Shown piece by piece: positions 11,747 through 57,576 of a stretch of 59,130 nt of DNA. Source of the stretch: Candidatus Levyibacteriota bacterium (GTDB taxonomy: Bacteria > Patescibacteriota > Microgenomatia > Levybacterales > UBA12049); the NCBI GenBank assembly GCA_016199085.1, contig JACQHJ010000006.1, positions 1-59,130 on the forward strand. Direction: 5' to 3'. Below the pieces are notes generated by a model that searched no databases, had not been told where the DNA came from, and saw nothing but the letters and a program-made list of their open reading frames with translations. Each line of letters opens with the position of its first letter. The stretch's first letter is position 1. Both the position numbers and the translations under genes were made by a program.

Positions 11747-12850
11747 TTAGGAAAGGCCGCCGATTACTTTTACTCTGTTTAAAAGATTCTCGTCTTCCAA
11801 TACTTTTCCGGTTCCTCGGACAACTGACGTTAACGGATCTTCGGAAAGCATTACGGGAATATGGATTCTCTCTATTATCAAATGGTCAAGTCCAAAAAGC
11901 TTTGATCCTCCGCCTGTTAAAAGTATTCCGTGCTCTAAAATATCACTTGTAAGCTCGGGTGGCGATTCCTCTAGGATATCGGCAATAGAATCAACTATCT
12001 GGGTTAGAACAGGAGATAACGCTTCCCTTACCTCAACTTCCGTAATCTTTAGACTTTTGGGAAGACCTGTTTCAATGTCTCTTCCTCTGATGATTGCTAC
12101 CTTTTCGCTATTTTTATCATCCTTTTGGACCTCGTCTTCCTTGACCGGCCTTGGTTTTGGTTTGTGGCCTTGATATGCACTTCCGATTGAAAGTTTTAAA
12201 TCCTCTGCTGTTTTCTCTCCTATTAAAAGACCGTGTCTAAGTCTTATGTAATGGGAGATTGCACTATCCATCTCGTCTCCTGCGACCCGAAGGGATTTCC
12301 CAACAACTATTCCACCTAAAGAAATAACGGCAATTTCGGTAGTTCCTCCTCCGATATCAACTATCATGACTCCTTTGGGAGAAAAAACAGATATTTCTTC
12401 ACCGATTGCCGCTGCCATTGGTTCTTCTATTAGATATGCCTGTCTTGCACCGGCTGACAAAGCCGCTTCCCAGACTGCCCTTCTTTCAACTTCTGTAACG
12501 GCTGAGGGGATTCCGATTACTACACGGGGCCTTGAAAAAGCAGTGGGGATGGTTCCTCCGACTTCGTGTACTTTTTGAATGTAGTATGAAATCATAGCAA
12601 GTGTTGCATCAAAATCCGAGATAACTCCACCCCTTAAAGGTCTTACGGTAATAATTGATGCGGGAGTTTTTCCGATCATTTTCTTGGCCTCTGTTCCTAT
12701 GGCGATAACCTTTTTGGTTTTTTTGTGCATGGCAACAACAGAGGGTTCTCTGATTACAATTCCCTTTCCTCTGACAAAAACCAAAGTGTTTGCGGTTCCA
12801 AGATCAATGCCGATATCGTGGGAAAAAAGTGAAAAAAACTTATCTAACAT
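11747..12850 (-). CDS. mreB: Rod shape-determining actin homologue MreB (copy 1, with an insertion)
   Basis: Actin-fold motifs are present: IGIDLGTANTLV, MIVDIGGGTTEIAVISLGG and LTGGGSKL. An extra segment of about 20 residues (HKPKPRPVKEDEVQKDDKNSEK) is absent from copy 2. Confidence 0.93.
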   Translation of the reverse strand: MLDKFFSLFSHDIGIDLGTANTLVFVRGKGIVIREPSVVAMHKKTKKVIAIGTEAKKMIGKTPASIITVRPLRGGVISDFDATLAMISYYIQKVHEVGGTIPTAFSRPRVVIGIPSAVTEVERRAVWEAALSAGARQAYLIEEPMAAAIGEEISVFSPKGVMIVDIGGGTTEIAVISLGGIVVGKSLRVAGDEMDSAISHYIRLRHGLLIGEKTAEDLKLSIGSAYQGHKPKPRPVKEDEVQKDDKNSEKVAIIRGRDIETGLPKSLKITEVEVREALSPVLTQIVDSIADILEESPPELTSDILEHGILLTGGGSKLFGLDHLIIERIHIPVMLSEDPLTSVVRGTGKVLEDENLLNRVKVIGGLS

Positions 12851-12943
12851 AAAAGACTTAGTTAATCTATAGTTTCAATTGGTAGTTATAATATCATCTT
12901 GCGAGGAGTTTTCCAATATGTTAGGATAATTCCACCCTGTTAA

Positions 12944-15436
12944 ATGAAATTATTAAACCTATTAAATAAAACTATTGAGTACTCCTTTTATCTTCTCTTC
13001 TTTTTAGTCCCTCTCGCTCTAACCGGAGACACTTCTGAGCTTTATGAATTTAATAAACTTTGGGTAACCTTTATTTTAACAATAATAATTGGAACTGCCT
13101 GGATTTTAAAAATGGTAGTAAAAAGGGAGTTTCGAATTCAAAAAACTCCTCTAGATATACCAATTGCCATATTTACGGTTTCTCTTATTCTTTCAACGAT
13201 CTTTTCGTTAGATACTCATACTTCTTTATGGGGATATTATTCAAGGTTTAATGGAGGACTTTTTTCAATGCTTTCATATATCTTTTTATACTATGCCTTT
13301 GTCTCAAACTACAAAGATCTAACCAGAGACGAGGAAGAAAAAGAGATAAAGGCCTCCCAAATACTTTTGTTTCTAGGGGCAGTTTCTTTGTTTTTTGCAG
13401 GAAACTTTATTGCAGCACAAACAGTCAAAATGGGGGGAACCTCAACTATTCCTTTTCAGATGTTAATTTCTCTAGTTACCGCAATTTCTTCTTTGGCAAT
13501 TTTTGCAAAAGCAATAAAAGGAAGCTTTTTAATCAAATCCTTCTTTGCAATTTTGACTTCTGCCGCAGTCGTAGTTTTATGGGGACTTCCCTCGCATTTC
13601 GGCTATGATCCAACGTGTTTACTGTTTAGGGGAACTTTTGATGTTTCCTGTTGGACAGTTGATTTCCAACCTAAAATAAGAGTCTTTTCAACATTGGGAC
13701 AGCCCGCTTGGCTGGCTGCATATCTTGCCGCCTTAATTCCCTTAATAACTGCAATTTTTATTAATTTTCTAAAAGAAAGGAAACTTTCCCCTAAACAAAA
13801 TCCTTTCAAAAACTACAATCTTTTCTACAGCACGTTTCTTTTTCTTTTTATCGCAGTCTCTTACTTAATGCTTTTATATACTCTTTCAAGAGGCGCTGTC
13901 ATAGCGATCTGGATTGAGATTTTGCTTTTGGCAGCTTTTTACTTTTGGTTTTATGTTAAACCAAGGCTTACCAAACAAAAGATTGCAGTTGATTTTAAAA
14001 TAGCAGTTGCTCTACTTATAACAATAGCCGCCATTACTTTTTTCAACGGACAACCATTTGGATTTTTGGATATCTTCACTTTTAAAGGAATTCAAGAAAA
14101 ACTTACAGTTAAGCCCGCGGGACAAACAAACCAGCCAACAAAACCAACCCCTACTCCCGTACCAGCCTCAACAGGAGAGCTAGGTGGAACGGATTCGGGT
14201 ACGATCAGGTTATATGTTTGGAGAGGTGCGGTTGATATTTGGAAACACTATCCTATTTTTGGCTCAGGACTTGAGACCTATGCCTTTGCCTATTATCAGT
14301 TCAAACCCCAGGGGCACAACTTAACTTCCGAATGGAACTATTTATATAACAAGGCTCATAACGAGTTTTTAAATTATCTGGCAACAACCGGGACACTTGG
14401 CATAGCCTCCTATCTTTTTCTTATCGGCTCATTTGTATTTATCTCCCTAAAACACCTAATGACAAGGCTTAAGAATCCAACCAAAGAAGACCTTTTAATC
14501 TATGCACTTTTATTAGGATATTTAGGAATTCTGATTACCAATTTCTTTGGCTTTTCGGTTGTATATATCAATATTTTGTTTTTCATGTTTCCCGCTTTTG
14601 TTTTTATTCTTGCCCAAAAAATAGACTTTGAAAAATCATATCAGCTTTCTTTTAACACAAATAAAACTGAGGTTTATGCTCTTTCCAATCCGCAAAAGGC
14701 TGTCTTTATTGTAGTTACTCTTGTATCTCTCTATCTTCTTTTTGTCCTGGCAAGATTCTGGCAGGCTGACAGATACTATTATCTTGGCTACAATCTGGAC
14801 AGAAGCCAGGATTATCAAAATGCATATCAGTATCTTCAGCTTGCAGTCGCCACAAGGCCAAGCGAACCGGTTTTCAGAGACGAGTTGGCGTTAAATAACG
14901 CAATCGTCGGCTCGGCAATTCTCTATCAAAACCAAACGCAGGAAAAACCCGATGAGCAAACCGCAAAATTTGGGCAGCAATTAATACAAAACGCAATTGA
15001 TACAAGCGATAAGCTTATATTGGAACATCCAAGAAATGTCGTGTTTGTAAAAACAAGGGTAAGAATCTTTTATACACTTTCCCAGATTAATCCTGGGTAT
15101 GCTGTCCAAGCTTTGGATGCAGTTAAAAAAGCAGCCATTCTTGCACCCACTGACGCCGATGTCTCGTATAATCTTGGGGTTTTGCTTGGCCAAAACGGAG
15201 ATATTGAGAAAGGCATTAAGGAGCTTAAGCGCACTTTAGAGCTAAAACCGGATTATACAAACGCACATTATGCGCTCGGCATCTTCTACCATCAGCTTGC
15301 AATTAACGACAAAGATCAGGTTGTAAACAGGGAATTTGCTCAGAAAGCAATTGATATTATGAAAAACCTTATAAAAACATATGGTCCAAACGAACAGGCG
15401 CAAACCGCAATCGATACATGGGAAAAACAGCTTTAA
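12944..15436 (+). CDS. O-antigen ligase/polymerase-like polytopic membrane protein with C-terminal TPR repeats
   Basis: 830 aa with more than 10 TM helices. It has a Wzy_C-like loop (LSRGAVIAIWIE...HNEFLNYL) and C-terminal TPR-like repeats (YNLGVLLGQNGDIEKGIKELKRTLELKPDYTNAHYALGIFY). Confidence 0.7.
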   Translation: MKLLNLLNKTIEYSFYLLFFLVPLALTGDTSELYEFNKLWVTFILTIIIGTAWILKMVVKREFRIQKTPLDIPIAIFTVSLILSTIFSLDTHTSLWGYYSRFNGGLFSMLSYIFLYYAFVSNYKDLTRDEEEKEIKASQILLFLGAVSLFFAGNFIAAQTVKMGGTSTIPFQMLISLVTAISSLAIFAKAIKGSFLIKSFFAILTSAAVVVLWGLPSHFGYDPTCLLFRGTFDVSCWTVDFQPKIRVFSTLGQPAWLAAYLAALIPLITAIFINFLKERKLSPKQNPFKNYNLFYSTFLFLFIAVSYLMLLYTLSRGAVIAIWIEILLLAAFYFWFYVKPRLTKQKIAVDFKIAVALLITIAAITFFNGQPFGFLDIFTFKGIQEKLTVKPAGQTNQPTKPTPTPVPASTGELGGTDSGTIRLYVWRGAVDIWKHYPIFGSGLETYAFAYYQFKPQGHNLTSEWNYLYNKAHNEFLNYLATTGTLGIASYLFLIGSFVFISLKHLMTRLKNPTKEDLLIYALLLGYLGILITNFFGFSVVYINILFFMFPAFVFILAQKIDFEKSYQLSFNTNKTEVYALSNPQKAVFIVVTLVSLYLLFVLARFWQADRYYYLGYNLDRSQDYQNAYQYLQLAVATRPSEPVFRDELALNNAIVGSAILYQNQTQEKPDEQTAKFGQQLIQNAIDTSDKLILEHPRNVVFVKTRVRIFYTLSQINPGYAVQALDAVKKAAILAPTDADVSYNLGVLLGQNGDIEKGIKELKRTLELKPDYTNAHYALGIFYHQLAINDKDQVVNREFAQKAIDIMKNLIKTYGPNEQAQTAIDTWEKQL

Positions 15437-44532: not shown

Positions 44533-44892
44533 ATGACAGGTTTATTTACATTTTTATTTTCAATCTGGCTCGGGTACATTCTCTTTCTTTACTTTTCTCA
44601 TCCAAGTAAGAAAAAGCATAAGGTTCCCCAGGTCAGAGTCTGGCGAATTGAGATTTTGCCAAATATCAGAATTCATTCAAGATCAAAGACATATCATATT
44701 CACCATTGGGTAATTCTTTCCATGCTTACGGCTATTACTCTTTTAAACTATGAAGGATTCCAGTATTTAACCATAGTTAAGGGAATGGCAATCGGAGGCA
44801 TAATTCAGGGGCTACGTTATCCTGACAGATTCAAGTTCAGACACCATAAGAAGCTATCGCCTAGTTTCAGTAGGTCAAGAAAAAGCCTCTAA
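44533..44892 (+). CDS. Small hypothetical membrane protein
   Basis: 119 aa with 2-3 hydrophobic helices and a basic C-terminal tail. Confidence 0.3.
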   Translation: MTGLFTFLFSIWLGYILFLYFSHPSKKKHKVPQVRVWRIEILPNIRIHSRSKTYHIHHWVILSMLTAITLLNYEGFQYLTIVKGMAIGGIIQGLRYPDRFKFRHHKKLSPSFSRSRKSL

Positions 44893-45746
44893 TCTACTCT
44901 CCAGAAAGTCTTTCCATTGGTAATTATCTCTATTTCTCCTTCTTTATCCGTTCTTAGTATTTCCGTCTTATATTTAGAAAGTAAATCCAAGGCTTCTTTA
45001 GTAGGATGGCCGTATCTATTACCCTTACCTACGCTTATTATTGAAATCTCAGGCAAAACCTGGCTTAGGAAATAATCACTCATGCCGGTCTTAGACCCAT
45101 GGTGAGGCACCTTAAGAAGGTCCACGTCGCCAGCAATAGCTGCTATCTGGTCTTCTACTACTTTGCCCGCGTCGCCTGTTAAAAGAGCTCTGAAATTACC
45201 ATATTGCAAAACCTGGATAATTGAATATTCGTTGACCACTGAGTAGTTTTTAGGATTTAGTTTCTGGGTAGCCTCAGAAGAAGGCCAGATAACGTTTGAA
45301 AAGCTTCCGTCTGAAAAGTCGATCTTATCATTTGCAAAGACGTATTTTAGGCTTAAACCTTCATTTTTCAAAGCTTTTAAAAATTTCTTATAAATCCCCG
45401 TGTCTTTGGAAGTTTTAGAAGTAACAAAGTTAAGCACATTATATCTTTCTAGTACACTTACCAGCCCGGTGAGATGATCTGCGTCAGGATGAGTCAGAAT
45501 TACAAGCTCAATATCCCTATCCCAAAAAGGCATATTGCTGCCCAAACAATCTAAAACTTTGTCTGACGGTCCTGCGTCAACCAAAATATCTTTGCCGGAA
45601 GGGGTCTTAATATAGATTGAGTCTCCCTGCCCTACGTCACAGACGACCAAATGCAGGTTTTTATCATTATTAACACTTTCTTGGTAAAAGAATATGCCTA
45701 AAAGAGCAAAAAAACTGGCGATGGTTAAAAACAAATAGTTTTTCAT
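44889..45746 (-). CDS. ComEC C-terminal module: TM helix plus metallo-beta-lactamase domain (separate gene)
   Basis: LVVCDVGQGDSIYIKTPSGKDILVDAGP, LTHPDADHLTG and VPHHGSK are MBL/ComEC motifs. The start is set at MKNYL, whose ATG overlaps the upstream gene's TGA (ATGA at 45743-45746). Confidence 0.8.
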   Translation of the reverse strand: MKNYLFLTIASFFALLGIFFYQESVNNDKNLHLVVCDVGQGDSIYIKTPSGKDILVDAGPSDKVLDCLGSNMPFWDRDIELVILTHPDADHLTGLVSVLERYNVLNFVTSKTSKDTGIYKKFLKALKNEGLSLKYVFANDKIDFSDGSFSNVIWPSSEATQKLNPKNYSVVNEYSIIQVLQYGNFRALLTGDAGKVVEDQIAAIAGDVDLLKVPHHGSKTGMSDYFLSQVLPEISIISVGKGNRYGHPTKEALDLLSKYKTEILRTDKEGEIEIITNGKTFWRVD

Positions 45747-46960
45747 TTTCTGACTTTGAAGACTATTATACTGGTTAGTAGTAGATAATATGAGAGAGTA
45801 AATGGCCAAGGTAGACTTTCAACAGCAAAACTCTGTTTAAGATTGCCAAAGACAGTTACAATACTTTCAAAAAAGTATAAAAAGGGAAGGCAAAGATATA
45901 GAATTAATGACGAGGCTAAAGGAAAAACAAAGCTAAAAAAAGCAGCAACTGCTCCTAAGATCATAAGAATTGGCACTGTCCAAAGAATAAGACCGTTTAC
46001 GACAATTGACCAAAGCGAATAATTGCCAAAATTGGAAACCAGGATAGGAAGTGTTGCCAGTTGTGCAGAAAAGGTTGTAATAAAACTTTCTGTAAAGCTG
46101 TTTTGGATCTTTTTGAAAATGTTTGGGATATATAAAAGCCCTAGAGTTGCGGCAAAAGAAAGCTGAAATCCGGTATCAACCAGAAAATCAGGTCTTACCA
46201 AAAACATAAAAAAGGCTGTTATTAAAAGCGTATTTAAAGCAAAAGTCTGTCTTCCCAAAGCTTGGGCGCTAAAAACTATTGTTCCCATAATGGCAGCTCT
46301 GACAATTGATGCTTCAAAACCGGCTAAACCGGTATAGAAAAATATTCCCAAAACCGATAATAGAATTGCAGTCTGCCTTCTAAAGAAAGCTCCGAAGATA
46401 TAAAACAAAAATCCCGAAACCATTGTCACATTCATTCCGGATGCTGCAATTACGTGCATTACTCCTGTTATCTGGATATCTTCCAAAAACTCTTTGGGAA
46501 GGTTTTCCTTTATACCAAAGACAATGCCTAGCATCAGTCCTGCAGAAACAGGATCTAAATTTGATTTGAAATTAGCTATGATTTTTTGGCGAATCGAATA
46601 AACGACTGCTAAAGGCAATACATTTTCACGAAAATTTGCTTCAATTTTAGGATGGTCAAGCGTGAAAATAGTGGATCTATCATTTAGCAATATCGTTTTG
46701 AGTCTGCCAGATACTTTTATATAATCTCCGTATGCTAGATTTCTATCCACGTCTGTTTTTATAAGAACTTTATTTAACGCGTCAATATTTACATAAACTG
46801 TTTGATAGTACGAAGAGAATTTGGGATTTGAGTCAATCTGGGTGGTAAAAATTATATCTTCCCCTTGTTTATAAGTTTTCTGGCTTTGGTAGAAAGTAAT
46901 TAATCTGAAAGACAAAATTACAATACAAACCGCATAGACCGCAAGAAATGGCTTACTCAT
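45743..46960 (-). CDS. ComEC N-terminal module: DUF4131-like OB region plus polytopic competence channel domain
   Basis: 405 aa. An N-terminal anchor and beta-rich region are followed by about 8 TM helices carrying the competence-domain pattern (GVMHVIAASGMNV...GFQLSFAAT). Confidence 0.8.
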   Translation of the reverse strand: MSKPFLAVYAVCIVILSFRLITFYQSQKTYKQGEDIIFTTQIDSNPKFSSYYQTVYVNIDALNKVLIKTDVDRNLAYGDYIKVSGRLKTILLNDRSTIFTLDHPKIEANFRENVLPLAVVYSIRQKIIANFKSNLDPVSAGLMLGIVFGIKENLPKEFLEDIQITGVMHVIAASGMNVTMVSGFLFYIFGAFFRRQTAILLSVLGIFFYTGLAGFEASIVRAAIMGTIVFSAQALGRQTFALNTLLITAFFMFLVRPDFLVDTGFQLSFAATLGLLYIPNIFKKIQNSFTESFITTFSAQLATLPILVSNFGNYSLWSIVVNGLILWTVPILMILGAVAAFFSFVFPLASSLILYLCLPFLYFFESIVTVFGNLKQSFAVESLPWPFTLSYYLLLTSIIVFKVRK

Positions 46961-46967
46961 AAATTAG

Positions 46968-47579
46968 CTAATAAGCAGATATTTTGTCCTTAATCTGGTC
47001 AAAAACCTTTTGGGAAACAACTTTTTTAGTCAATAAATCGTCTGTCTGGCTATATGGCCTGTTGTTGATTATCTTTTCAGCCGTGACAGGTCCGATTCCC
47101 GGCAGAGTATCTAACTCAGATTCCAAAGCAGAGTTAATGTTAATTACGGCTGGGACAGTATCGGAAACCGTTGAGCCTAAAACAGAAGACGAAATAGATT
47201 CACCGATTCTTGGAATATAGATCTTTTGAGAATCAGTAAGTTTTAAGGCAAGGTTGAGGTTTTTAGAAACCCAGTCTCTGTCTGCCGAAGCTGAAAGACC
47301 TCCTGCTAAAGCTAGGCCGTCTTGGACTATTGAGCCTTGTTTTAGCCTGTATACGCCTGGGTTTGTGACTTCCCCTTCTATATCAACTGTTAAGAGGTTT
47401 TCCGAAGCTGTTTGAGTGTTGGAATTTGTCTGAATTTTAATATCTCCTGAAGACTTACTCTGACCCAAAAAAGCTATCAAACCATATACAAAGAATATCA
47501 AACCAAGTAGGGCTAGAGAAAGGGGTAACCAATGTTTTCTTAAAACATCCTTCCACTTTTCGGATAACTGACTATCCAT
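46968..47579 (-). CDS. comEA: ComEA-like DNA receptor (SLBB plus helix-hairpin-helix)
   Basis: It has a TM anchor, an SLBB-like segment (GEVTNPGVYRLKQGSIVQDGLALAGG) and an HhH motif (ININSALESELDTLPGIGPVTAEKII). Confidence 0.85.
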   Translation of the reverse strand: MDSQLSEKWKDVLRKHWLPLSLALLGLIFFVYGLIAFLGQSKSSGDIKIQTNSNTQTASENLLTVDIEGEVTNPGVYRLKQGSIVQDGLALAGGLSASADRDWVSKNLNLALKLTDSQKIYIPRIGESISSSVLGSTVSDTVPAVININSALESELDTLPGIGPVTAEKIINNRPYSQTDDLLTKKVVSQKVFDQIKDKISAY

Positions 47580-47580
47580 T

Positions 47581-49839
47581 TTAAACTACAAAATTAATGA
47601 TTTTACCTTCTATGTATATTACCTTCTTTATAGCACTGGTTAGGTATTTTGCCACCTTTTGACTACTTTTAGCCTCATTTTCGACCTTTTCCTGGGATTT
47701 TATAAATTCTCTTTTCACGACAATTGCGTCCCTAAGTTTACCGTTAACCTGAACTGCTATATTTACCGAATCTGAAATTAAGTATTTAGATTGAAATACC
47801 GGCCAATCTTCTAAATGAACAGAGTTAGCATTTGGATTTAACAAGTGCCAAAGCTCATCCGTGATGTGGGGCGCAAAAGGCGCTAAAAGCCTAAGTAATG
47901 TCTTATACTCCTCACTTGTAACAGTCTTTTTGGAAGTTAAATGGTTTAACCAGATCATTAAACTAGATACTGCCGTATTAAACGCTAAATTCTCAAGGTC
48001 AACGCCTACCTTTTTAATTGCCTGGTGCATTTTAGAAAGGTCCTGCCTGGAAAGCTCTCCCTTATCTACTTTTTCTAAAAGATCCCAGGCTCTTTTTAAA
48101 AATTTATAGACTCCGCCTATGGCTGTAGGCGACCAAGGCGATGTTGCTTCGTAGGGCATCATAAAACAAAGATAGAGTCTGACCGTATCTGCACCGTATT
48201 CTTTGACTACGTCGTCAGGACTGACTACATTTCCCCTTGATTTACTCATTCTGTCTCCGTCAGGTCCTAATATTACTCCGTGCTGGATTCTTTTTTTGGC
48301 AAACTCGTCAAATTCTAGAAGACCAAGTTCCTTGAAAAACTTTGTGAAAAACCTCGCATAAAGTGTGTGACCCAAAGTGTGTTCCGAGCCTCCGAAATAG
48401 ACGTCTACAGGCATAAGCTTAGCTACTTCTTTTGGATCAAAAGGACCTTTATGAAACTCAGGAGACACATAGCGGTAGTAATACCAGGCGCTGTCAAAGA
48501 AAGTATCCAAGGTTTCGGCATCTCTTTTAGCCTCACCGCCACACTTTGGACACTTCACGTTTAGCCATTTCTCATCTGAAGCCAAAGGCGGCTTTCCTTT
48601 AGGCGTATAGTCAACATTATATGGCAGCTCAACGGGTAAGTCTTTTTCCGGTACAGGCACCAAACCGCACTTTTCACAATGTATTATCGGCACGGGCGTT
48701 CCCCAGTATCTTTGTCTTGAGATTGACCAGTCTCTTAAATGGTAGTTAATTGTCTTTTCACCTTTGGGTTTAGCGTTAAATTTAGTTTCTATAATGGGAA
48801 GATTGAATTTTTGGGCAAACTCCCTATCTCTCTCGTCTACATATGGAACTGCCATAATAGCACCAGTACCATAACCTGCTAAAACATAATCTGATATCCA
48901 GACAGGGACATCTTTTCCGGTTACAGGGTTTTTCACATACTTTCCTGAAAATACTCCTGATTTTGTTCTATCTTCTTTTCTTTCCATCTCTGTTTTTTTA
49001 GAAGCAGCTAAAACGTAATCTTCAACTTCTTTGGTCTTAGAAAGATTTTTCACAAACTCATGCTCAGGCGCAACAACGAGAAATGTTGCTCCATCAATCG
49101 TTTCAGGTTTGGTTGTAAAAACTTCTATTCCCGAAAAGTCAATCAACATTCCCTCTGATTTTCCTATCCAGTTGTTTTGTCCTTCAATTACCTGTTTTGG
49201 CCAATCAGCCTGAGGTGGATTTTTCCAGATTAAACTTTCTGCGTATTTGGTGATGGCCAAAAACCATTGCTCTACTTCTTTTTGAACTACTTCTGCTCCG
49301 CATCTCCAGCATTTACCAGCTTCTATATGTTCGTTAGCCAGTACAGTCTGATCTGTTGGGCACCAGTTTGATAGTGCAATTCCACGGTAGGCAATTCCCT
49401 TTTCAAACATTTTTAGAAATATCCACTGGTTCCATCTGTAAAAATCCGGAAGACAAGTAATTGTAGAATGAGTCCAGTCAATCATCGTTCCCATAATGTC
49501 AAACTGGGTACGCATTACTTCAATATTTTTCATTGTCCAATCCCGAGGGTGAATTCCCCGTTTTATCGCTGCATTTTCAGCCGGAAGGCCGAATGCATCA
49601 AAGCCGTTTGGATAAAAAACATTAAAGCCCGACATTTTCTTAAAACGGGCATGGACATCAGCAGGAACAAAGGCAAACCAATGACCAAGATGGAGATCGC
49701 CTGAGGGATACGGAAGTTCTACGAGGTTATAGTATTTTTGTTTTTTAGGATCATCTTTAAACTCAAAGGAGTTTTGTTTTTTCCAGTTTTCTCTCCATTT
49801 AGCTTCAATTTTGTCTGCAAAATATCTTCCCTGTTTCAT
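47581..49839 (-). CDS. leuS: Leucine--tRNA ligase
   Basis: It has HIGH (PYPSGDLHLGHW), the CP1 editing-domain marker (FTTKPETIDGATF...YGTGAIMAVPYVDERD) and KMSKS (RMSKSRGN). Confidence 0.95.
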   Translation of the reverse strand: MKQGRYFADKIEAKWRENWKKQNSFEFKDDPKKQKYYNLVELPYPSGDLHLGHWFAFVPADVHARFKKMSGFNVFYPNGFDAFGLPAENAAIKRGIHPRDWTMKNIEVMRTQFDIMGTMIDWTHSTITCLPDFYRWNQWIFLKMFEKGIAYRGIALSNWCPTDQTVLANEHIEAGKCWRCGAEVVQKEVEQWFLAITKYAESLIWKNPPQADWPKQVIEGQNNWIGKSEGMLIDFSGIEVFTTKPETIDGATFLVVAPEHEFVKNLSKTKEVEDYVLAASKKTEMERKEDRTKSGVFSGKYVKNPVTGKDVPVWISDYVLAGYGTGAIMAVPYVDERDREFAQKFNLPIIETKFNAKPKGEKTINYHLRDWSISRQRYWGTPVPIIHCEKCGLVPVPEKDLPVELPYNVDYTPKGKPPLASDEKWLNVKCPKCGGEAKRDAETLDTFFDSAWYYYRYVSPEFHKGPFDPKEVAKLMPVDVYFGGSEHTLGHTLYARFFTKFFKELGLLEFDEFAKKRIQHGVILGPDGDRMSKSRGNVVSPDDVVKEYGADTVRLYLCFMMPYEATSPWSPTAIGGVYKFLKRAWDLLEKVDKGELSRQDLSKMHQAIKKVGVDLENLAFNTAVSSLMIWLNHLTSKKTVTSEEYKTLLRLLAPFAPHITDELWHLLNPNANSVHLEDWPVFQSKYLISDSVNIAVQVNGKLRDAIVVKREFIKSQEKVENEAKSSQKVAKYLTSAIKKVIYIEGKIINFVV

Positions 49840-49897: not shown

Positions 49898-50530
49898 ATG
49901 AAGGCTTTTCTAGAACCCTTAGTAATCATCGCCTCTTTTATTACCGTTTTTATCTGGCAAGAAAGCCCCTTAAAGGATTATACTGTCCAGCTTTTAGGTC
50001 TTTTTATAGTCTTGTATTTTATAGTTTCGGCAAGAAAAGGAGGAAAAGGCTTTTTAACTTTGGGAGGAGAAGGATTTATGGGTGTTTTTATCTTAAACAC
50101 GCTTATTTTTCTTCTCATTTTCTCAACAGGAGGCTTACAAAGCGCTCTTTTCTTTGTTCTTTACTTCCTTTCATTTGGCATAGCTTTTGTCTTTGATCCT
50201 AAAAATGTTTTTGTTTTTATACTCGGAGGTATACTTATCTTTTATCCCGAGATCCAAATGGGAGATTTGACGAGTAACCTATTAAAGATTGGCTCCTTAG
50301 CTTTAATTTCTCCTCTTGCCTACTTTTTCGGAAGAGAATACAGAAGATCTGATCAGCAAGATGAAAAAGTTAATGCCCTTAAAGATCGAACCAAAGAAGC
50401 CGCAGATACGATATCAGAAGACATTGAAGAAGTCATAGAAGAAGAAAAGGGAAGCCTAAAAGAGAAAGACGTAGAAAAGCTAAACGAAGTCTTGGAAGAA
50501 ACAGAAGATCTTCGAAGCGAGTCGAAATGA
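49898..50530 (+). CDS. Polytopic membrane protein with an acidic coiled-coil tail; first gene of the surface cluster
   Basis: 210 aa with about 5 TM helices and a C-terminal Glu/Asp/Lys-rich tail of about 60 aa. Its stop overlaps the next gene's start (ATGA at 50527-50530). Confidence 0.45.
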   Translation: MKAFLEPLVIIASFITVFIWQESPLKDYTVQLLGLFIVLYFIVSARKGGKGFLTLGGEGFMGVFILNTLIFLLIFSTGGLQSALFFVLYFLSFGIAFVFDPKNVFVFILGGILIFYPEIQMGDLTSNLLKIGSLALISPLAYFFGREYRRSDQQDEKVNALKDRTKEAADTISEDIEEVIEEEKGSLKEKDVEKLNEVLEETEDLRSESK

Positions 50531-51261
50531 ACAGCTTTAAATATTTCTTGTTTTTAGTAATTTTACCCCTTATCTACCTTTCTTTATATATTGGGGCAAG
50601 CTTTGCCCAGACAATGTCAAACGACGACTACACAGTCCAAATGGGAAATTTAAACAGCATTTCAGGAAGAGCTTCGGGGTCGGGTAAAAACCTAACTTTC
50701 ACCTCGGGAGAAACAGGAGCGCATCTTTTCACAGGCACAAACTATAAAGTCAGGGCAGGTTTTCAATATATTAACTCCATTATTCCCTTTACTTTCTCAA
50801 TCTCGAGTATCTTTATTGATTTTGGCATAATCAACCCGACCACTCCGGTTACAAGAACGAATGACTTAACGGTTTCCTTTGGCTCTGCCCACGGATACCA
50901 GGTAACAGCTTCGCAAAACCACAATCTAAGGGCAGACGCAACCGGATTTGATATTCCGCCAACAACCTGTGACTCCGGCACCTGTACGACAACAACTGCC
51001 GCAGCCTGGACAAGCTCCCTAGTCTACGGCTTTGGCTACAGATGCGACAACATAACCGGGACTGATTGCGACAGCGGTTTTGCAACTGCTGATTTTTATA
51101 AGCAGTTTATCTCTTCTCCTTCGGCGGTTTCGGTAATGAGCTCGTTAAATGTTGGAAGAAACAGAAAAGGACGAATAACTTATAAAGTAAACGTCGCCGG
51201 AACCCAACCTTCAGGACTATATACAAATATAATTAACTATATAGCAACAGCTACATTTTAA
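50527..51261 (+). CDS. Secreted beta-rich subunit A (WxL-like architecture, 4 Cys)
   Basis: It has a signal peptide ending ASFAQ. It is Thr/Ser/Gly/Asn-rich and contains the internal motif HGYQVTAS and two Cys pairs (TTCDSGTC, YRCDNITGTDC). The extreme C-terminus reads GLYTNIINYIATATF. Confidence 0.55.
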   Translation: MNSFKYFLFLVILPLIYLSLYIGASFAQTMSNDDYTVQMGNLNSISGRASGSGKNLTFTSGETGAHLFTGTNYKVRAGFQYINSIIPFTFSISSIFIDFGIINPTTPVTRTNDLTVSFGSAHGYQVTASQNHNLRADATGFDIPPTTCDSGTCTTTTAAAWTSSLVYGFGYRCDNITGTDCDSGFATADFYKQFISSPSAVSVMSSLNVGRNRKGRITYKVNVAGTQPSGLYTNIINYIATATF

Positions 51262-52265
51262 TGAAAAACAATATATTTTTAACAACAATTATAACGCTAA
51301 GTTTTATAGCCTTTAGCTTATTTTTGATAAGAGAAATATCTTTCGCCCAAAACGTTTCCATAGGAGTTTATCCCCCTATTATGCAGATGGATACTACGCC
51401 ACCGGCCAATCCTAAAGCTGACTTTTTCTTAACTAATCCGTCTGACCAAAGCCTAGAACTTAGTATTTCCTACAAACCTTTTAAACCAAAAGGAACCAAA
51501 AACGGCGAGATCGAGTTATCCGATGATCTGTCTTCCTTTCCCGATCCTTTGTTTGTAAACAGGGTTAAGATTTTAGAAGAAGACGAACCGGTAAAATCTG
51601 TTGTCCTTTCTCCAAAGCAAAATAAAAAACTTACGCTTGAATTACAGCTTCCACCTAACGAGCAAAAAGGAGATTATTACTTTACGATTCTTTTTAGCAG
51701 TAGGCCAACAACGAATATAAAAGCAAACTCAAGCCTTTTGTATCCGACAATCGGCATGAATGTCTTACTTACGGTTGGGCCTAAGGGAAAAACCGAAGGT
51801 TATATCTCAAGGTTTAGCGTTCCCCTCTTTGTCGACAGCGGTCCGGTTGTCTTTAATGTAGAAATCGCAAACAGAAGCGATCATTTCATTTCCCCAACCT
51901 CTGAAATTACAATTAAAAACCTGACAACGGGTAAAAAAGATATTGTCAGTTTACTTCCTGTTAATATTCTGGCTAATACGGTAAGGGCCATTCCCGACTC
52001 GCTGCAGGCTGAAGTAGGTTCAAGCGAATACGAGAAAATAAGAGACATTGTTGAAAGACAGGATTCTCCTGTAGCTGTATATCCCAAAAAATTTCTCTTG
52101 GGCTTTTACAACGCGACCTTAAATGTTTCCCTAGAAGAAACGCAAACCAAATTTACCAAATCCATTACCTTTTTTGCTTTTCCTATAAGTTTATTACTTG
52201 GCATAGTTGTCCTTTTAGGGATAGTTGTCTTTATAGTGTTAAGGGTAAGAAAGAAGATTTCCTAA
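51261..52265 (+). CDS. Membrane-anchored two-domain beta-sandwich-like partner A (DUF916/DUF3324-like architecture)
   Basis: It has a signal peptide ending SFAQ. Motifs are LQLPPNEQKGDYYFTILF and NRSDHFISPTSEITI. A C-terminal TM helix is followed by an RVRKKIS tail. Its start overlaps the upstream stop (TAATG). Confidence 0.55.
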   Translation: MKNNIFLTTIITLSFIAFSLFLIREISFAQNVSIGVYPPIMQMDTTPPANPKADFFLTNPSDQSLELSISYKPFKPKGTKNGEIELSDDLSSFPDPLFVNRVKILEEDEPVKSVVLSPKQNKKLTLELQLPPNEQKGDYYFTILFSSRPTTNIKANSSLLYPTIGMNVLLTVGPKGKTEGYISRFSVPLFVDSGPVVFNVEIANRSDHFISPTSEITIKNLTTGKKDIVSLLPVNILANTVRAIPDSLQAEVGSSEYEKIRDIVERQDSPVAVYPKKFLLGFYNATLNVSLEETQTKFTKSITFFAFPISLLLGIVVLLGIVVFIVLRVRKKIS

Positions 52266-52394: not shown

Positions 52395-53813
52395 ATGAAG
52401 AAATTATTGCCTCTTTTGATCCTAATCCTCATGGTAGGATTTTTTAGTGTCCCAAAAGCAAATGCAGCGTCCCTTAGTAACGTCAAAGACACCCTTACAA
52501 CCTCAAGGCCTTCGCCCTCCTCTCCGTTAAATGCAGACCAGGCTGCAGGCGCAACACAAATCAGTATTGTTGATAACGGATCAATTTTCCTTGCTTCAGA
52601 CAGCGCAATATTAGACCTTGATACGGGGCAAACTATTGAAAGCGTAAATGTTTCTTCTATGTCTGCACAAATTAGTGGCAGTCCTAACAGCAGAAACATA
52701 TATTTGAATTCAAGCCTTACCAACACGCACCATAAAGGAACTGCTGTTTGGACAGGGATAACGGCAACGCATACAATTCAATTTACAGTCAACACGTCTA
52801 TTCCTAGTGGCGGAAAAATAAAAATCACCTTCCCAGGTGCTGCATCAAATATTGCATCACCCTCTGCAGCCACTTTTTCGTTTAATAATCTCCAGACTAG
52901 TGCTGTTAAATGCTATCCTACCTCTGCCTGTGACTCTATTTCTGTTTCAGCACCAAGCATAACCTTAACAACCAACGCTACTCAGACAACCGGAACAATA
53001 ATTTATGTACTAATTGGCTGCACAACTCAATCAACAGGAGCTTGTACTGCTTATGCACCGGCCCTAATCAATCCTACCAAGATAAACAGTGCCGGCTCAT
53101 CCGATCAGTGGAGAGTTTTGATAGAGACTTTGGATGCTTCAGATATTGTCTTGGATTCTTCTCCTATTAAGATAGCAACCATTGACTCTGTTCAGGTCCA
53201 AGGAATTGTCGAACCGTCAATTACTTTTACTATCACAGGTCTTGCCCATGGAACAAACATTACGACCCAAAATGCAAGCTGTACGGGAGCAGATATTACC
53301 AATCCGGGCTCTGGACTTGACGCAACAGCCACTTTTGTAAATTTAGGAGGACTTTCAAACGGAAATATCAATATCTCAGCTCAGGAACTCAGTGTTTCAA
53401 CGAATGCATTTTCGGGTTATGTTATTACTGCCACTTCTTCCGGCCGTTTTATTAATCCAGCCACAGGTTTTTGGATAACCGATGCCAACGGAGGAGACGG
53501 TTTGACGGCTAACGATACACCAGCGCCTGCAGTCCTTCCTGCAACCGGTAACCCTGCTTTTGGAATACATCCTTGCGGAGCTGACGTAGCAAGCGGCACT
53601 TGGGCCAATGCGGCAACTGCGTTTGGATCAGGTGCCAAATACTCAAACCCATGGAATACCGGAGTCAACGGCTACTATGCCACTCTGGCAAGCTATAGCC
53701 AGCCTGCAAGTGCTCGAAAAACAGAAGTTGAATACGCGGGAACAGTTGCAGCTACAACTCCTGCAGGAACTTATACGACAGTCTTTACCTTTGTTGCAAC
53801 AGGAACTTTTTAA
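52395..53813 (+). CDS. Secreted beta-rich subunit B (large, 6 Cys)
   Basis: It has a signal peptide ending PKANAAS. It is 472 aa and extremely Thr/Ser/Ala/Gly/Asn-rich. It contains the internal motif SGYVITAT. The extreme C-terminus GTYTTVFTFVATGTF aligns position by position with subunit A. Confidence 0.55.
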   Translation: MKKLLPLLILILMVGFFSVPKANAASLSNVKDTLTTSRPSPSSPLNADQAAGATQISIVDNGSIFLASDSAILDLDTGQTIESVNVSSMSAQISGSPNSRNIYLNSSLTNTHHKGTAVWTGITATHTIQFTVNTSIPSGGKIKITFPGAASNIASPSAATFSFNNLQTSAVKCYPTSACDSISVSAPSITLTTNATQTTGTIIYVLIGCTTQSTGACTAYAPALINPTKINSAGSSDQWRVLIETLDASDIVLDSSPIKIATIDSVQVQGIVEPSITFTITGLAHGTNITTQNASCTGADITNPGSGLDATATFVNLGGLSNGNINISAQELSVSTNAFSGYVITATSSGRFINPATGFWITDANGGDGLTANDTPAPAVLPATGNPAFGIHPCGADVASGTWANAATAFGSGAKYSNPWNTGVNGYYATLASYSQPASARKTEVEYAGTVAATTPAGTYTTVFTFVATGTF

Positions 53814-53816: not shown

Positions 53817-54800
53817 ATGAGGACACTGTCCAAAAATTACTTAAATAAACTTTTAATAACAGTAGCCTTGGTAGCTTGTCTATCCATAGCTTCAACCGCT
53901 TTTGCCCAAGAAATACAAAGAACTTATACCATCATTAACCCCGCCATCGTGCACACCTTAAACCCGGGACAAAGAGCGGAAGGAGTAACCAAAGTCATAA
54001 ACCAAAGTAACGTTGAATTAACATTTAAATTAAACGTTCAGGATTATATTGTCACCGACACAAAAGGAACGCCCAATATTCTCCCCCCGGATACTTTGAA
54101 TTCAAAATATTCTGCAGCAGCCTGGATAGGAGTAAGTCCGAGCACATTTACCCTAAAACCAGGAGCAACCCAAGTTGTCAGTTACTTTATCCAAATTCCA
54201 CCCAATGCAGCACCGGGAGGACACTATGCAGCCATTGTCTATGCTCCGACAACTGTCGCCCAAGAACAGGCAACTGGAGGCACTGTTAATACTCAAGTCG
54301 GTTCCCTCTTCTATCTAACGGTAAACGGCCCTGTTAAAGAAAAGGCAGAGGTTTCAAAGTTTGAAACAAACGGTTTTTCCGAATACGGGCCAGTGAAGAT
54401 ACTAACGCAAGTCAAAAACATGGGAGATTTGCATATAAATCCCAAAGCCAAAATTACCGTCTCAGGACTTTTTTTTAACGAGAAACAGGATCTTCTCTCC
54501 CAAAACATCTATCCCCAGACAGCCAGGGATTTTGAAAACACTTTCGGAAGCCTTTTCATGCTTGGAAGATATAAGGCTGATTTTGTAGGATCATACGGCA
54601 AGGAGAATAACCTACCTCTGGTTGCAAGCTTGTACTTCTGGGTCTTTCCATGGAGACTGGCGCTTGTAATAACGCTTGCAGTCATAGCCATAATTCTTGG
54701 CACCATCTACCTTAAAAGAAAAAAGGAAAAGGGTTCTAAACCACAAGATGAGTCCAGGGACGAGGCTACAAAACCATACAAAGAAGAAAAAGCCTCCTAA
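53817..54800 (+). CDS. Membrane-anchored two-domain beta-sandwich-like partner B (paralogue of 51261-52265)
   Basis: It has a signal peptide ending TAFAQ. Motifs are IQIPPNAAPGGHYAAIVY and NMGDLHINPKAKITV. A C-terminal TM helix is followed by a Lys/Glu-rich tail. Confidence 0.55.
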   Translation: MRTLSKNYLNKLLITVALVACLSIASTAFAQEIQRTYTIINPAIVHTLNPGQRAEGVTKVINQSNVELTFKLNVQDYIVTDTKGTPNILPPDTLNSKYSAAAWIGVSPSTFTLKPGATQVVSYFIQIPPNAAPGGHYAAIVYAPTTVAQEQATGGTVNTQVGSLFYLTVNGPVKEKAEVSKFETNGFSEYGPVKILTQVKNMGDLHINPKAKITVSGLFFNEKQDLLSQNIYPQTARDFENTFGSLFMLGRYKADFVGSYGKENNLPLVASLYFWVFPWRLALVITLAVIAIILGTIYLKRKKEKGSKPQDESRDEATKPYKEEKAS

Positions 54801-54842: not shown

Positions 54843-55250
54843 ATGTTAAGCAGTATTGAAGCATTAGAAGGGCAAATGCTACGTCCTTATAAAAGAAGAG
54901 CATATATGTCGGAAAGACACGTAACCCTTGACCCGGCAGATGAAGCAGTTTTAAGGGCAAAGCTCGTAAAATCGATTCTGGACGGCAAGGATCTTTTAAA
55001 AAGACCGGGCAGAAGAGAAATTGCCATGATTGATCCAAATATATCCTCCGACCTACTCCCCTCTAACCTTGCCCCGAGCGAGGTTGTAGTTTGGGAAAGA
55101 CAGCTTGGAAGCCAGTTTTCAAGAGTCTATCTCCCCTATCAAGCCGAAACGATCAGGGAAAGACTCGAAATGGGCTTGGACATAGCCCAGGTTATAGTAA
55201 ACGTAGACCAAAGAAATATAAGACCGGTTGCGCTGCTTTCCGGTAAATAA
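54843..55250 (+). CDS. Hypothetical protein (GC-richer orphan)
   Basis: 135-aa ORF, Arg/Leu/Glu-rich, with no TM helix or signal peptide. A TATAAT box (54826-54831) lies 11 nt upstream of the ATG. Confidence 0.3.
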   Translation: MLSSIEALEGQMLRPYKRRAYMSERHVTLDPADEAVLRAKLVKSILDGKDLLKRPGRREIAMIDPNISSDLLPSNLAPSEVVVWERQLGSQFSRVYLPYQAETIRERLEMGLDIAQVIVNVDQRNIRPVALLSGK

Positions 55251-55308
55251 TATTAGACACGTCGGAACTCAGACTAATACTTAATAGAACTTTATTACAT
55301 ATATCTTC

Positions 55309-55337
55309 TTGACTTACCCTATATAATCCTATATAAT
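55309..55337 (+). promoter_or_regulatory. Promoter positioned for a leaderless fic transcript
   Basis: TTGACT (55309-55314), a 17-nt spacer, then TATAAT (55332-55337). Seven nt lie between the -10 box and the ATG at 55345. The -10 box is tandemly duplicated (CTATATAAT twice). Confidence 0.55.
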
Positions 55338-55344
55338 CATATAT

Positions 55345-56406
55345 ATGAACCATATAACGCATTTTGATAAAAGACTTGAGCAAATCCCTAATAAGATTTG
55401 GTCTAAGATCGCTTATGTAGATGAACTGAAAGGCAGATGGAGTGCGGGAGTAAATCTTAGTCCTGAAGTTCTAAAAAGACTTAAAAGATCAGTTTTAGTC
55501 ACGTCTACAGGAGCCTCTACCCGCATTGAAGGAGGAAAGCTTTCCGATGAAGAAATAGAAAAAATGATACGGGGAATATCAATAGAAAAATTTAGTAACC
55601 GCGATGAGGCTGAAGCTCAAGGTTACTTCGAGCTGTTAAGCAATGTATTTAATGCCTGGGATAGCTTAAAATTAAATGAAAACACTATAAAACATTTCCA
55701 CCAAGAACTTTTAAAATATACCCAAAAAGATCTATTACACAGAGGAAGATACAAAAGCAAAGAAAACCAGGTAAGAATGATTGGGCCAGAAGGAGAAGAT
55801 ATGGGAGTACTTTTTGATACTACTCCCGCCTACTTAACTCCAAAAGAAGTAAACGAACTCGTAGAATGGACAAATCAAGCTTTTGAAAGTAAAAAATACC
55901 ATCCCCTACTTATTATAGGAAATTTTATTGTTGAATTTCTAAGTATCCATCCTTTTGAAGATGGAAATGGCAGATTGTCAAGAATTTTAACCAATTTATT
56001 GCTTTTAAAACAAGGTTATTTATATACGCCTTATGTCTCCCATGAAAAATTGATTGAAGACAGTAAGGCGGATTATTATCTAGCTCTTCGAAATAGCCAG
56101 AAGACTTTTAGAACCGGAAAAGAAGACCTATCTTTTTGGCTTGATTTTTTCCTAAAAATACTTTCAATACAATCCGAGCTGGCAATAGAACTTATGACAA
56201 GCGAAAATATTGAGAGTATGCTTTCCTCAAAGCAGCTTGCCGTTTGGCAATATTTGCAAGAAACAAATGATGCATCCCCTATGGAAATAGCTAAAAAGAT
56301 AAATATAGCTAGAATTACCGTTAACCAAGTATTGAATAAGCTTTTAAAGATCAAAAGAATTGAAAGGATAGGCCAAGGATCAGGTATTAGGTATAGAAAG
56401 AAATGA
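55345..56406 (+). CDS. Fic-family protein (AMPylase-type) with a C-terminal winged-HTH
   Basis: It has the canonical Fic motif HPFEDGNGRLSR. The C-terminal region (LAVWQYLQETNDASPMEIAKKINIARITVNQVLNKL) looks like a wHTH. Confidence 0.9.
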   Translation: MNHITHFDKRLEQIPNKIWSKIAYVDELKGRWSAGVNLSPEVLKRLKRSVLVTSTGASTRIEGGKLSDEEIEKMIRGISIEKFSNRDEAEAQGYFELLSNVFNAWDSLKLNENTIKHFHQELLKYTQKDLLHRGRYKSKENQVRMIGPEGEDMGVLFDTTPAYLTPKEVNELVEWTNQAFESKKYHPLLIIGNFIVEFLSIHPFEDGNGRLSRILTNLLLLKQGYLYTPYVSHEKLIEDSKADYYLALRNSQKTFRTGKEDLSFWLDFFLKILSIQSELAIELMTSENIESMLSSKQLAVWQYLQETNDASPMEIAKKINIARITVNQVLNKLLKIKRIERIGQGSGIRYRKK

Positions 56407-56679: not shown

Positions 56680-57576
56680 TTAATAACCCATAAAGTATTT
56701 GTGATGCAGCGGGTGTTCCCTCTTAAACTTATCTCCAAAAAAGATTACAAGTTTGTTTCTATAAATAAAGGAGAAACGCTCCGGCCAGAGCTTAACAAGG
56801 AGTATAATAATCAGGATAAGGATTGGTATAGCAAGCCAAAGTGGTCCGAATGACAAAGACGTAAAGAAGTCCCTAATCTTATTTAGAAACTGCCTTAGCC
56901 ATTCTAAGAATTGCTCCCATAAAGATAAAGATTTAAGGGTCAGCTTTCTCTCCGGCTCAAGAGATGGTTTCTCATCTAACACCGCTGTTGCATAAAGCTG
57001 GTAAGTGCCTGCCTTAACGTCTTTTATGACAAATTGATAGTATCCTGTTTCATCCGCAAATGTTGTATACGTCTTATTCCCAAAATGTAAGGTAACTAAA
57101 GCATTTGGCATTGAATATCCAAAAGCCACAGCCGAGCTTCCGGCCTCAATCGTTGTACGCAAAAGTCCAAGAGTTGGAGGAAGAAAAATGTCTTTAATTG
57201 TCGTGTTTTCTTTTATAGGAGGTACTGTCATACAGCTGTATGACTCACCTAGCCTCCTAAAGTCAACGGCATCAAAGCAAAAGCGGGTAAGACCAGCCTT
57301 AACCAGGACTTCCGAGATGGTAAAGTAGCCGTTTTGATCTGCAGTCGTTGCCCTAAGATATACTCCGTCTGTATATAAAACTATGGAAGCAAAAGGAGCT
57401 ATGTAGCCTGATAGACTTAAATAAAAATCTCCCAGCTTTCCATAGACGGTTGAACTATGACTACCCTGAGGAAGCTTATATTGAGCAAGCGTTACTCTTG
57501 CATACAGGAAAAACAAAAAGATTGCAAAGCTAAATAGGATCAATAAAAATAAGGCCTTGGGCAGAAATTTTTTCAT
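56680..57576 (-). CDS. Surface protein with two CarboxypepD_reg/Ig-like beta-sandwich repeats and a C-terminal TM segment
   Basis: It has an N-terminal signal/anchor ending VTLAQ. The repeats are TTADQNGYFTISEV and FADETGYYQFVIKDVKAGTYQLYA. A TM helix (LWLAIPILILIIILLV) is followed by a basic/aromatic tail. Confidence 0.5.
   Translation of the reverse strand: MKKFLPKALFLLILFSFAIFLFFLYARVTLAQYKLPQGSHSSTVYGKLGDFYLSLSGYIAPFASIVLYTDGVYLRATTADQNGYFTISEVLVKAGLTRFCFDAVDFRRLGESYSCMTVPPIKENTTIKDIFLPPTLGLLRTTIEAGSSAVAFGYSMPNALVTLHFGNKTYTTFADETGYYQFVIKDVKAGTYQLYATAVLDEKPSLEPERKLTLKSLSLWEQFLEWLRQFLNKIRDFFTSLSFGPLWLAIPILILIIILLVKLWPERFSFIYRNKLVIFFGDKFKREHPLHHKYFMGY

Follow-up and report, generated by a model that had tools for sequence, protein, structure and literature searches.

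A C-terminal strand common to two probable Pam-type pilus subunits of a Levyibacteriota genome, with partner genes related to WxLIP

The Pam pilus is a chaperone-assisted, usher-less donor-strand-exchange pilus of the candidate phyla radiation (CPR)/Patescibacteria, described in 2026 from cryo-electron microscopy of filaments of Candidatus Mycosynbacter amalyticus that consist of the pilins PamA and PamB (Troman et al. 2026, preprint, 10.64898/2026.03.03.709456). In both pilins the C-terminal domain has an open-barrel, or truncated immunoglobulin (Ig)-like, fold and accepts a strand from the adjacent pilin, namely the linker that joins the N-terminal domain of that pilin to its C-terminal one; linker and binding site are the most conserved regions of Pam pilins. 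PamE is a further shaft pilin, PamT is a single-domain tip pilin, described without a donor strand, PamC and PamD are PapD/FimC-like chaperones that retain a C-terminal transmembrane (TM) helix, and homologues are known from Saccharimonadia and Microgenomatia (10.64898/2026.03.03.709456). The present text concerns a stretch of 59,130 nt from a Candidatus Levyibacteriota bacterium (the window; contig JACQHJ010000006.1 of assembly GCA_016199085.1), in which two secreted proteins of 244 and 472 amino acids (aa) end in similar tails of 15 residues. The best explanation overall, with a probability of about 0.7, is that this tail is the last beta-strand of a C-terminal domain common to two Pam-type pilus subunits, and the locus is a divergent Levybacteria member of the Pam system already described in 2026.

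Two further systems are close enough to serve as reference. The WxL clusters of Firmicutes consist of a small WxL protein, a large WxL protein and a WxLIP protein with a TM helix (PMC9772566, PMC10599100), and AlphaFold2 (AF2) models predict that a strand of WxLIP completes the WxL sandwich (PMC10599100). In chaperone-usher pilins the seventh, C-terminal strand G is missing and the G1 strand of the chaperone fills the resulting groove (PMC3960871).

The two tails were located at the ends of their open reading frames (ORFs). Positions 53766-53813 of the forward strand translate to GTYTTVFTFVATGTF followed by the stop codon, and close the 472-aa ORF; positions 51214-51261, on the same strand, translate to GLYTNIINYIATATF and a stop, and close the 244-aa ORF. 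Both read G-x-Y-T-x-h-h-x-[YF]-[IV]-A-T-x-T-F-stop (h, hydrophobic), so that the gapless C-terminal match and the pattern reported in an earlier note on this DNA are borne out by translation. Seven of the 15 residues are identical and the BLOSUM62 score is 46, the highest among the 85,600 ungapped pairs of 15-mers that arise when the two mature proteins are compared. This score is attained by none of 200,000 composition-matched random draws, and chance is ruled out as the source of the match. The DNA encoding the tails is identical at merely 29 of 45 positions, synonymous differences included, which indicates that the likeness has been kept by selection at the protein level; recent gene conversion as the origin of the common tail is rejected on the same figure. 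Each tail is predicted to be the last beta-strand of its protein, at E230-242 in the small subunit (51214-51258, forward) and at E464-470 in the large one (53766-53810, forward), where it forms a hairpin with the strand E438-451.

The tail is the best-conserved part of a homologous C-terminal domain of about 150 residues. A BLASTP comparison of the 472-aa and 244-aa proteins aligns some 130-160 C-terminal residues at 27% identity (E 4e-6); the remainder of the two proteins, earlier described as strongly diverged, is not unrelated. Family alignments of 55 sequences for the 472-aa protein (A1) and 60 for the 244-aa protein (A2) extend this relationship, and hhalign matches residues 311-472 of the first with 93-244 of the second, to the last residue of each (probability 96%, E 2.2e-9). 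Other blocks common to both families are F-[VI]-[DN]-[FL]-G, L-[TS]-V-S...G-Y-x-[VI]-T and F-G-[IY]..C. Conserved cysteines are found at C148, C153, C173 and C181 in the small family and at C296 and C394 in the large. Within a superfamily alignment of 174 sequences, the last 15 columns rank first among 151 windows of that size, with 2.54 bits against a mean of 1.86.

The earlier note had also looked to homologues for the motif, and it is present at the C-terminus of every homologue examined. All 120 members of the large family fit G.Y.[TN]..[TSNV][YF][IVT][AV][TS]..F at that end, while in the small family G-x-Y is kept in 118 of 120 members and a terminal F or Y in 116 of 120. The small subunit has 505 homologues, and an exhaustive search with the domain profile yields 1,814 cluster representatives, 765 of them at E<=1e-10; among the best 150 of the 1,814, the domain match extends to the protein C-terminus in nearly all. 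Counting back from the end of the chain in 145 diverse representatives, Y-13 occurs in 143, G-15 in 131, N or T at -11 in 135, an aromatic residue at -7 in 137, A-5 in 125, P-3 in 123 and a terminal F or Y in 133. The conserved positions alternate (-13, -11, -9, -7, -5, -3, -1), as expected of a single face of a strand. A scan of species-representative genomes with A1 provided 54 loci in other genomes; there, in each of the 94 complete pilin ORFs, the domain runs up to the final residue and the end conforms to G-x-Y-(11 residues)-[FYWLI]-stop.

Of the families matched significantly, that of the Pam pilins is the closest. Pfam gives no match for either protein. In NCBIfam release 20 both match NF058581 (CPR_Pam_pilin_C, 'Pam pilus system pilin subunit'), the 244-aa protein with 25.0 bits (E 1.6e-5) and the 472-aa protein with 27.8 bits (E 2.3e-6) when taken in full and 35 bits (E 1.4e-8) for the domain alone. 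The matches end at residue 244 of 244 and 472 of 472, respectively, and cover the profile from positions 2-5 to 148 of 148. Isolated domains from the two families match it in 34 of 34 cases (best E 8.4e-12). The N-terminal half of the 244-aa protein also matches NF058579 (PamT) over profile positions 5-128 of 241, with 28.7 bits and E 7.8e-7. In the secreted proteins the domain is placed at the extreme C-terminus, and hydrophobic signal sequences, modelled as helices, are visible at the N-terminus. The named relatives of the window proteins are from Candidatus Levybacteria (Microgenomatia). A search of PDB sequences, in a set without the PamA/PamB entries 25PZ and 25QA, left both the pilin sequence and the domain profile unmatched.

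In architecture, the large subunit (52395-53813, forward) would be a PamA-like shaft pilin, with a signal peptide, a beta-sandwich N-domain, a linker at about 263-282 and a putative acceptor domain at about 300-472. The AF2 model has a mean predicted local distance difference test score (pLDDT) of 86.9, reaching 90-96 in the C-terminal domain, and places the linker (263-282) between a beta-rich N-terminal domain (28-262) and a beta-rich C-terminal one. The linker (about 263-282, nt 53181-53240) is partly modelled at low confidence and has conserved residues at V266, V268, Q269, V272, P274, T277, I280 and G282. Its segment VQVQGIVEPSITFTIT had been likened by eye to the segment VRAGFQYINSIIPFTFSIS of the 244-aa protein, a comparison that was dropped at an hhalign E of 0.15.

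The small subunit (50527-51261, forward) appears PamT-like and comprises a signal peptide, an N-terminal region at 26-83 and a putative acceptor domain at about 86-244. Its model is confident for residues 89-244 (pLDDT 83-91) and falls below 50 for residues 26-83. This N-terminal region (50602-50775) has invariant residues at Q28, N32, M39, G40, N41, G47, G61, G70, N72, G78, F79 and Y81; the approximately 55 residues at the mature N-terminus are among the most conserved of the protein, yet have almost no predicted secondary structure. This is what is typically seen in a segment that needs a partner in order to fold, and the region may act as a cap, an adhesin or a donor.

Both models place the tail with confidence as the terminal strand of the chain, paired with the long strand before it in a hairpin whose T/Q-P-A/S-G turn is followed by a Tyr. 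The strand-P..G-x-Y-strand pattern is what we take to be the E-F hairpin of an Ig-like fold with its tyrosine corner. The terminal hairpin of the pilin (53706-53810) aligns with a hairpin in domain 1 of partner 1, one of the two neighbouring partner proteins (PKQNKKLTLELQLPPNEQKGDYYFTILFSSRP, residues 117-148; score 28.2, E 6e-4); the partner chain runs on past this hairpin, and the pilin chain stops there. The likeness may be that of a generic tyrosine-corner hairpin, or may point to common ancestry of acceptor and chaperone domains. Weak Pfam matches to PapD-like and ASH families fall on the pilin domain, not on the partner.

Each of the two pilin genes in the window is followed by a gene for such a partner. 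Partner 1 (51261-52265, forward; 334 aa), which appears both WxLIP/DUF916-like and PamC/D-like, has a signal peptide, two beta-rich regions and a TM helix at about 307-327 followed by RVRKK. Its paralogue, partner 2 (53817-54800, forward; 327 aa), has a signal sequence and a TM helix at about 277-298 followed by a basic tail. The two are related at E 2e-13 in BLASTP. Both match Pfam WxLIP_PGBD (PF06030), partner 1 with 21.8 bits (E 2e-4) and partner 2 with 14.8 bits (E 0.03), scores that lie under the gathering score of 27.3. Across the partner family 48 of 51 members match PF06030 (best E 1.1e-9), and a precomputed match to it exists for about half of 120 partner homologues. When the family profile is run against 177,635 PDB sequences, the sole match is EfmWxLIP1, WxLIP1 of Enterococcus faecium (9i1y, E 9e-4); a single partner sequence run against the PDB gave one ribosomal-protein match, judged spurious. 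Seven Firmicute WxLIPs drawn from annotated plasmid clusters align with the family in hhalign at 95.8% (E 7.8e-9) over 156 columns, covering domain 1 only. By these profile comparisons the partners are firmly placed as clear homologues of Firmicute WxLIP/DUF916 proteins. DUF3324 (HBD) is not among the families matched by the 51 partner members.

Several basic residues of the partners are strongly conserved. R242 of partner 1 (about 51984-51986) is invariant in 51 of 51 partner sequences, of both paralogue types, and basic positions that include K72, R101 and K122 are conserved to at least 88%. In PapD-type chaperones, conserved basic residues anchor the C-terminal carboxylate of the pilin. No claim is made for a PapD-like Arg/Lys carboxylate anchor in the partners, as the residues cannot be placed without a structure.

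The pairing of genes recurs outside the window. With P for pilin and C for partner, the order in the 54 loci is P-C-P-C in 24, P-C in 11, P-C-P in 10 and P-C-P-C-P in 3. A partner gene adjoins the pilin genes in nearly all loci; the idea that a DUF916-like partner is always adjacent is correct to that extent, and not for every locus. The order seen in the window (244, 334, 472 and 327 aa) is the same in the metagenomic contigs L001 and L002. Some genomes have additional large-pilin paralogues (L002, at 12556-14040; L014, L017, L024), for example as a third pilin past partner 2. Others of these extra pilins are orphans, on the same contig without a partner gene, and L057 and L058 both lie on contig PLZJ01000002.1. 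The extra paralogues suggest pilin diversification served by a common chaperone.

From these observations and from the published Pam structures, a mechanism can be proposed. The C-terminal domain would be one strand short, and the tail would be its last strand, beside the site that receives the donated strand. Its conserved face (Y-13, N/T-11, a hydrophobic residue at -9, Y/F-7, A-5, P/A-3, F-1) would help to build the hydrophobic acceptor site. The membrane-anchored partner would first supply the donated strand and hold the subunit at the membrane, and the linker strand of the next pilin (about 263-282 in the 472-aa protein) would afterwards replace that of the partner. The tail probably belongs to the acceptor domain and is unlikely to be what is donated, an assignment made because PamA and PamB donate the linker and accept with the C-terminal domain. 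The earlier proposal of an assembly or recognition strand, in a donor-strand system with a DUF916-like partner, is in line with the homology of domain and partner and with the published exchange in Pam pili, except that the role given to the strand, inserting into the partner or into a neighbouring subunit, is probably reversed. Homology, position, strand prediction, conservation and gene pairing come from the present analysis, and donor-strand exchange in PamA/PamB from the literature.

A number of results weigh against this assignment to a Pam-type pilus. The scores against NF058581 (25-35 bits) do not reach its cut-off of 55 bits, and the relation is one of significant remote homology, short of formal membership. 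The 244-aa protein likewise stays far below the equivalog cut-off of NF058579 (28.7 against 240 bits) and, to judge from its profile matches, is PamT-like without being a PamT equivalog. The partners are matched by no NCBIfam model for a Pam chaperone. Fold searches with both AF2 models return type 1 pilus subunits, SafDAA and the TasA fibre at E 4e-4 to 0.1, with low TM-scores, and these matches are weak and non-specific. Since AF2 gives a confident monomeric model of the C-terminal domain, the fold is not shown here to be incomplete. Some nine strands are predicted in the domain, beyond the six of a chaperone-usher pilin, and the label 'F strand' is for this reason an analogy. The groove-lining role of the tail is inferred, as is the importance of a free C-terminus.

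The same confident monomer model would also suit another interpretation, in which the tail is the best-packed core strand, at the tyrosine corner, of a self-contained sandwich, serves folding only and belongs to monomeric surface adhesins. The occurrence of the same hairpin pattern in the complete Ig-like domain of the partner, i.e. as a generic feature of the fold, is in its favor, as is the report that the side chains of the WxL motif are buried (PMC9772566). However, the chain ends exactly past the strand in 94 of 94 ORFs and nearly all of the best 150 representatives, and its terminal aromatic residue is conserved, whereas internal packing demands neither an aromatic end nor a fixed end of the chain. 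Furthermore, a dedicated partner gene follows each pilin gene, the homologous PamA and PamB polymerise via this very domain, and a conserved linker of low model confidence lies just upstream of it in the 472-aa protein; a purely structural strand is considered unlikely. A C-terminal sorting or secretion signal, similar to the Phe-ended beta-signal of outer-membrane proteins or to a sortase signal and read by export or attachment machinery, for which the 210-aa protein at the head of the operon would be one candidate, is very improbable. It would account for the extreme C-terminal position, the alternating hydrophobic residues and the terminal Phe, and the 210-aa protein is indeed conserved and polytopic. 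Against it, the tail is an integral, confidently modelled strand of the domain that lies within the NF058581 profile, not a detachable tag; there is neither an LPXTG-like or hydrophobic-anchor pattern nor a sortase in the module, and CPR bacteria, to our knowledge, are described as having no outer membrane and no Bam machinery.

A third interpretation takes the domain for a CPR version of the WxL domain: a non-covalent cell-wall anchor stabilised by the partner, with the tail as the distal WxL motif and without a filament. The partner is truly a WxLIP/DUF916 homologue, and the window, with a small client, a large client and a TM-bearing WxLIP, has the layout by which WxL clusters are defined (PMC9772566, PMC10599100). 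WxL tails align gaplessly and in register with the Pam-type tail (Y/Y, I/L, T/T, Y/W, A/L), for instance IELSVPGSTTKYAKKYSTTFTWVLSDTP with ITYKVNISGTQPAGLYTNIINYIATPTF. In hhalign the Pam and WxL domains are co-linear over their whole length with both motifs opposite each other, and the score of 19.3 exceeds all 150 of 150 column shuffles (mean 10.7, standard deviation 1.9, maximum 17.9) as well as the reversed profile (11.8). On the other hand, the E-value of this alignment is 0.026-0.034 and its probability about 2%, and unrelated real beta-domains used as controls reach 14.5-16.7. Pfam WxL (PF13731) matches 0 of 34 domains even at E<=10, and a WxL hidden Markov model (HMM) gives no signal on Pam domains above that on control domains, for which reason homology to the WxL domain is not claimed and is left as unproven. 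The positions of the WxL motifs read G-Y-x-V and Y-[IV]-A in the pilins, and neither Trp is present. A solved WxLIP-WxL complex (9i25) appears among the fold matches; 9i25_C, at first taken as WxL, is the WxLIP chain and was rejected as such, and neither fold search has the WxL chain 9i25_A among its 50 best matches. Since the Pam pilin domain, of which the solved members form filaments, is the nearest family with a significant match, and since peptidoglycan binding by WxL is itself largely inferred, an anchor of this kind is judged quite unlikely; this also applies to the WxL-like cell-wall anchoring that the earlier note had suggested, in view of the missing Pfam match, the absent W-x-L residues and the filaments formed by solved relatives.

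On a further reading, Pam pili and the Firmicute WxL clusters, as known from Enterococcus, Listeria and lactobacilli, could be two branches of one ancient monoderm strand-donation system, in which a membrane-tethered chaperone of DUF916/WxLIP type completes a C-terminal client domain that ends in a G-x-Y...aromatic strand. We put this forward tentatively, at somewhat less than even odds. The Pam preprint (10.64898/2026.03.03.709456) mentions neither WxL nor DUF916, the WxL papers draw no link to Pam, and in the literature searched 'WxL' and 'donor strand' occur together only in a 2013 review. If the common origin is true, the distal WxL motif is the Firmicute version of the tail studied here, WxLIP serves as a chaperone in assembly instead of binding peptidoglycan or the host, and donor-strand exchange might link WxL proteins to each other or to a base protein of LPXTG type.

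The pilin and partner genes are preceded by a gene for a polytopic membrane protein of 210 aa with an acidic C-terminal tail (49898-50530, forward), the first of the module, which overlaps the start of the small-pilin gene by ATGA. It has no family match in Pfam or NCBIfam. Homologues occur in 31 of the 54 loci, directly upstream of a pilin ORF in 28 of the 31, and one is found at the same position in L001 and in L002. It is a candidate for an extra part of the assembly machinery, and a membrane protein of this type is unmentioned in the Pam preprint (10.64898/2026.03.03.709456). Downstream and convergent is a 298-aa protein (56680-57576, reverse) with a signal or anchor sequence, two Ig-like regions (CarboxypepD_reg/Big-like) and a C-terminal TM helix; its match to Pfam CarboxypepD_reg (E 3.7e-7) is just under the cut-off. 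Homologues are present in 47 of the 54 loci and adjoin the module in L001 and L002. The architecture of two beta-sandwich domains and a TM helix recalls PamR, and the protein is a possible PamR-like anchor; no match to the PamR model of NCBIfam is found among the module neighbours. Neither an usher-sized gene nor a sortase occurs in the module in the window, L001 or L002.

Between partner 2 and the 298-aa gene (54843-56406) lie a Fic/DOC-family gene (353 aa, Pfam Fic E 1.6e-15, with an HTH-like C-terminal region) and a preceding ORF of 135 aa. In related loci they are found at this place in 0 of 54 and 2 of 54 cases, respectively, and so look like a genome-specific insertion. The upstream flank (44889-49839, reverse) encodes a metallo-beta-lactamase-fold protein, ComEC (Competence domain, E 2e-50), a ComEA-like SLBB/HHH protein and leucyl-tRNA synthetase (LeuRS); this synteny is retained in L001. 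Many of the species-representative genome records that carry such a Levybacteria-type operon (L010, L012, L014, L017 and about 20 others) bear the title 'uncultured Gammaproteobacteria bacterium', and a single one is entered as 'Clostridia bacterium'. The names seem to be placeholders or the product of mis-binning, and are not to be taken for taxonomic spread of the system.

What is added here to the description of Pam pili is a C-terminal signature, the pairing of pilin and partner genes, and the firm homology of the partners to WxLIP. The signature, G-x-Y-x-[NT]-h-h-[TN]-[YF]-[IV]-A-x-[PA]-x-[FY]-COOH as the last residues of the protein, is a checkable one for Pam-type pilins of Microgenomatia, where pilin genes stay 'hypothetical' because current NCBIfam models fall under their thresholds. 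The terminal motif also marks a spot at which the mechanism of assembly can be probed. Through the partners, the new CPR pilus is tied to Firmicute surface-protein clusters linked to virulence and adhesion, and complementation by a chaperone strand is thereby suggested as a mechanism for the WxL clusters; a connection of the Pam pili of CPR bacteria with these clusters is plausible but unproven.

Compared with the Pam pili described so far, the locus shares a C-terminal pilin domain matched from end to end, occurrence in CPR (Microgenomatia), a large subunit modelled with two domains and a conserved linker next to a single-domain small subunit, putative Sec signal peptides, conserved cysteine pairs, and adjacent partners with a C-terminal TM helix. 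It differs in scoring under the NCBIfam cut-offs, as a divergent Levybacteria branch, and in having a simpler operon of two pilins and two partners without a recognisable PamB, PamE or PamR. The extra conserved 210-aa membrane protein and the convergent Ig-like TM protein are further differences, as is the conserved N-terminal region of about 55 residues in the small subunit, and the flanking genes are LeuRS and ComEC/ComEA, whereas the pam operon of M. amalyticus is reported with ATP synthase.

With WxL clusters (PDB 9i1y, 9i25) it has in common a partner homologous to WxLIP, a small and a large client with a TM-anchored partner, a conserved domain that is always C-terminal, and a tail in the register of the distal WxL motif; the strand insertion predicted for WxLIP, which completes the client sandwich, may be counted as a further likeness. 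In contrast to those clusters, Y-x-V and Y-I-A stand in place of W-x-L, with no Pfam WxL match, the module has no LPXTG protein or sortase, DUF3324 is undetected in the partner, and the WxL proteins themselves have been described as adhesins bound to peptidoglycan and not as filaments.

The logic of the chaperone-usher systems (Pap/Fim) would be the same by analogy: the subunit chain stops at the final strand of an Ig-like fold that is left incomplete, whose hydrophobic site is filled by a chaperone strand and then by the strand of a neighbouring subunit. The C-terminal strand of Pap/Fim subunits is itself conserved: hydrophobic residues alternate along it, a Gly stands some 14 residues before the end, and an aromatic residue lies close to the terminus. 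Here, however, there is no usher and no outer membrane, and the chaperone is tethered to the membrane; the donor is an internal linker in the Pam type and an N-terminal extension in Pap/Fim, and the acceptor domain is larger (about 150 residues, about nine strands), with no detectable sequence homology. Extracellular beta-sandwich subunits, donated strands and the lack of an outer membrane are also features of TasA fibres and of archaeal threads and bundling pili, although the likeness in fold to the TasA fibre is weak (a low-scoring fold match). These filaments have no dedicated chaperone genes, while in the Levybacteria locus each pilin gene is paired with a partner.

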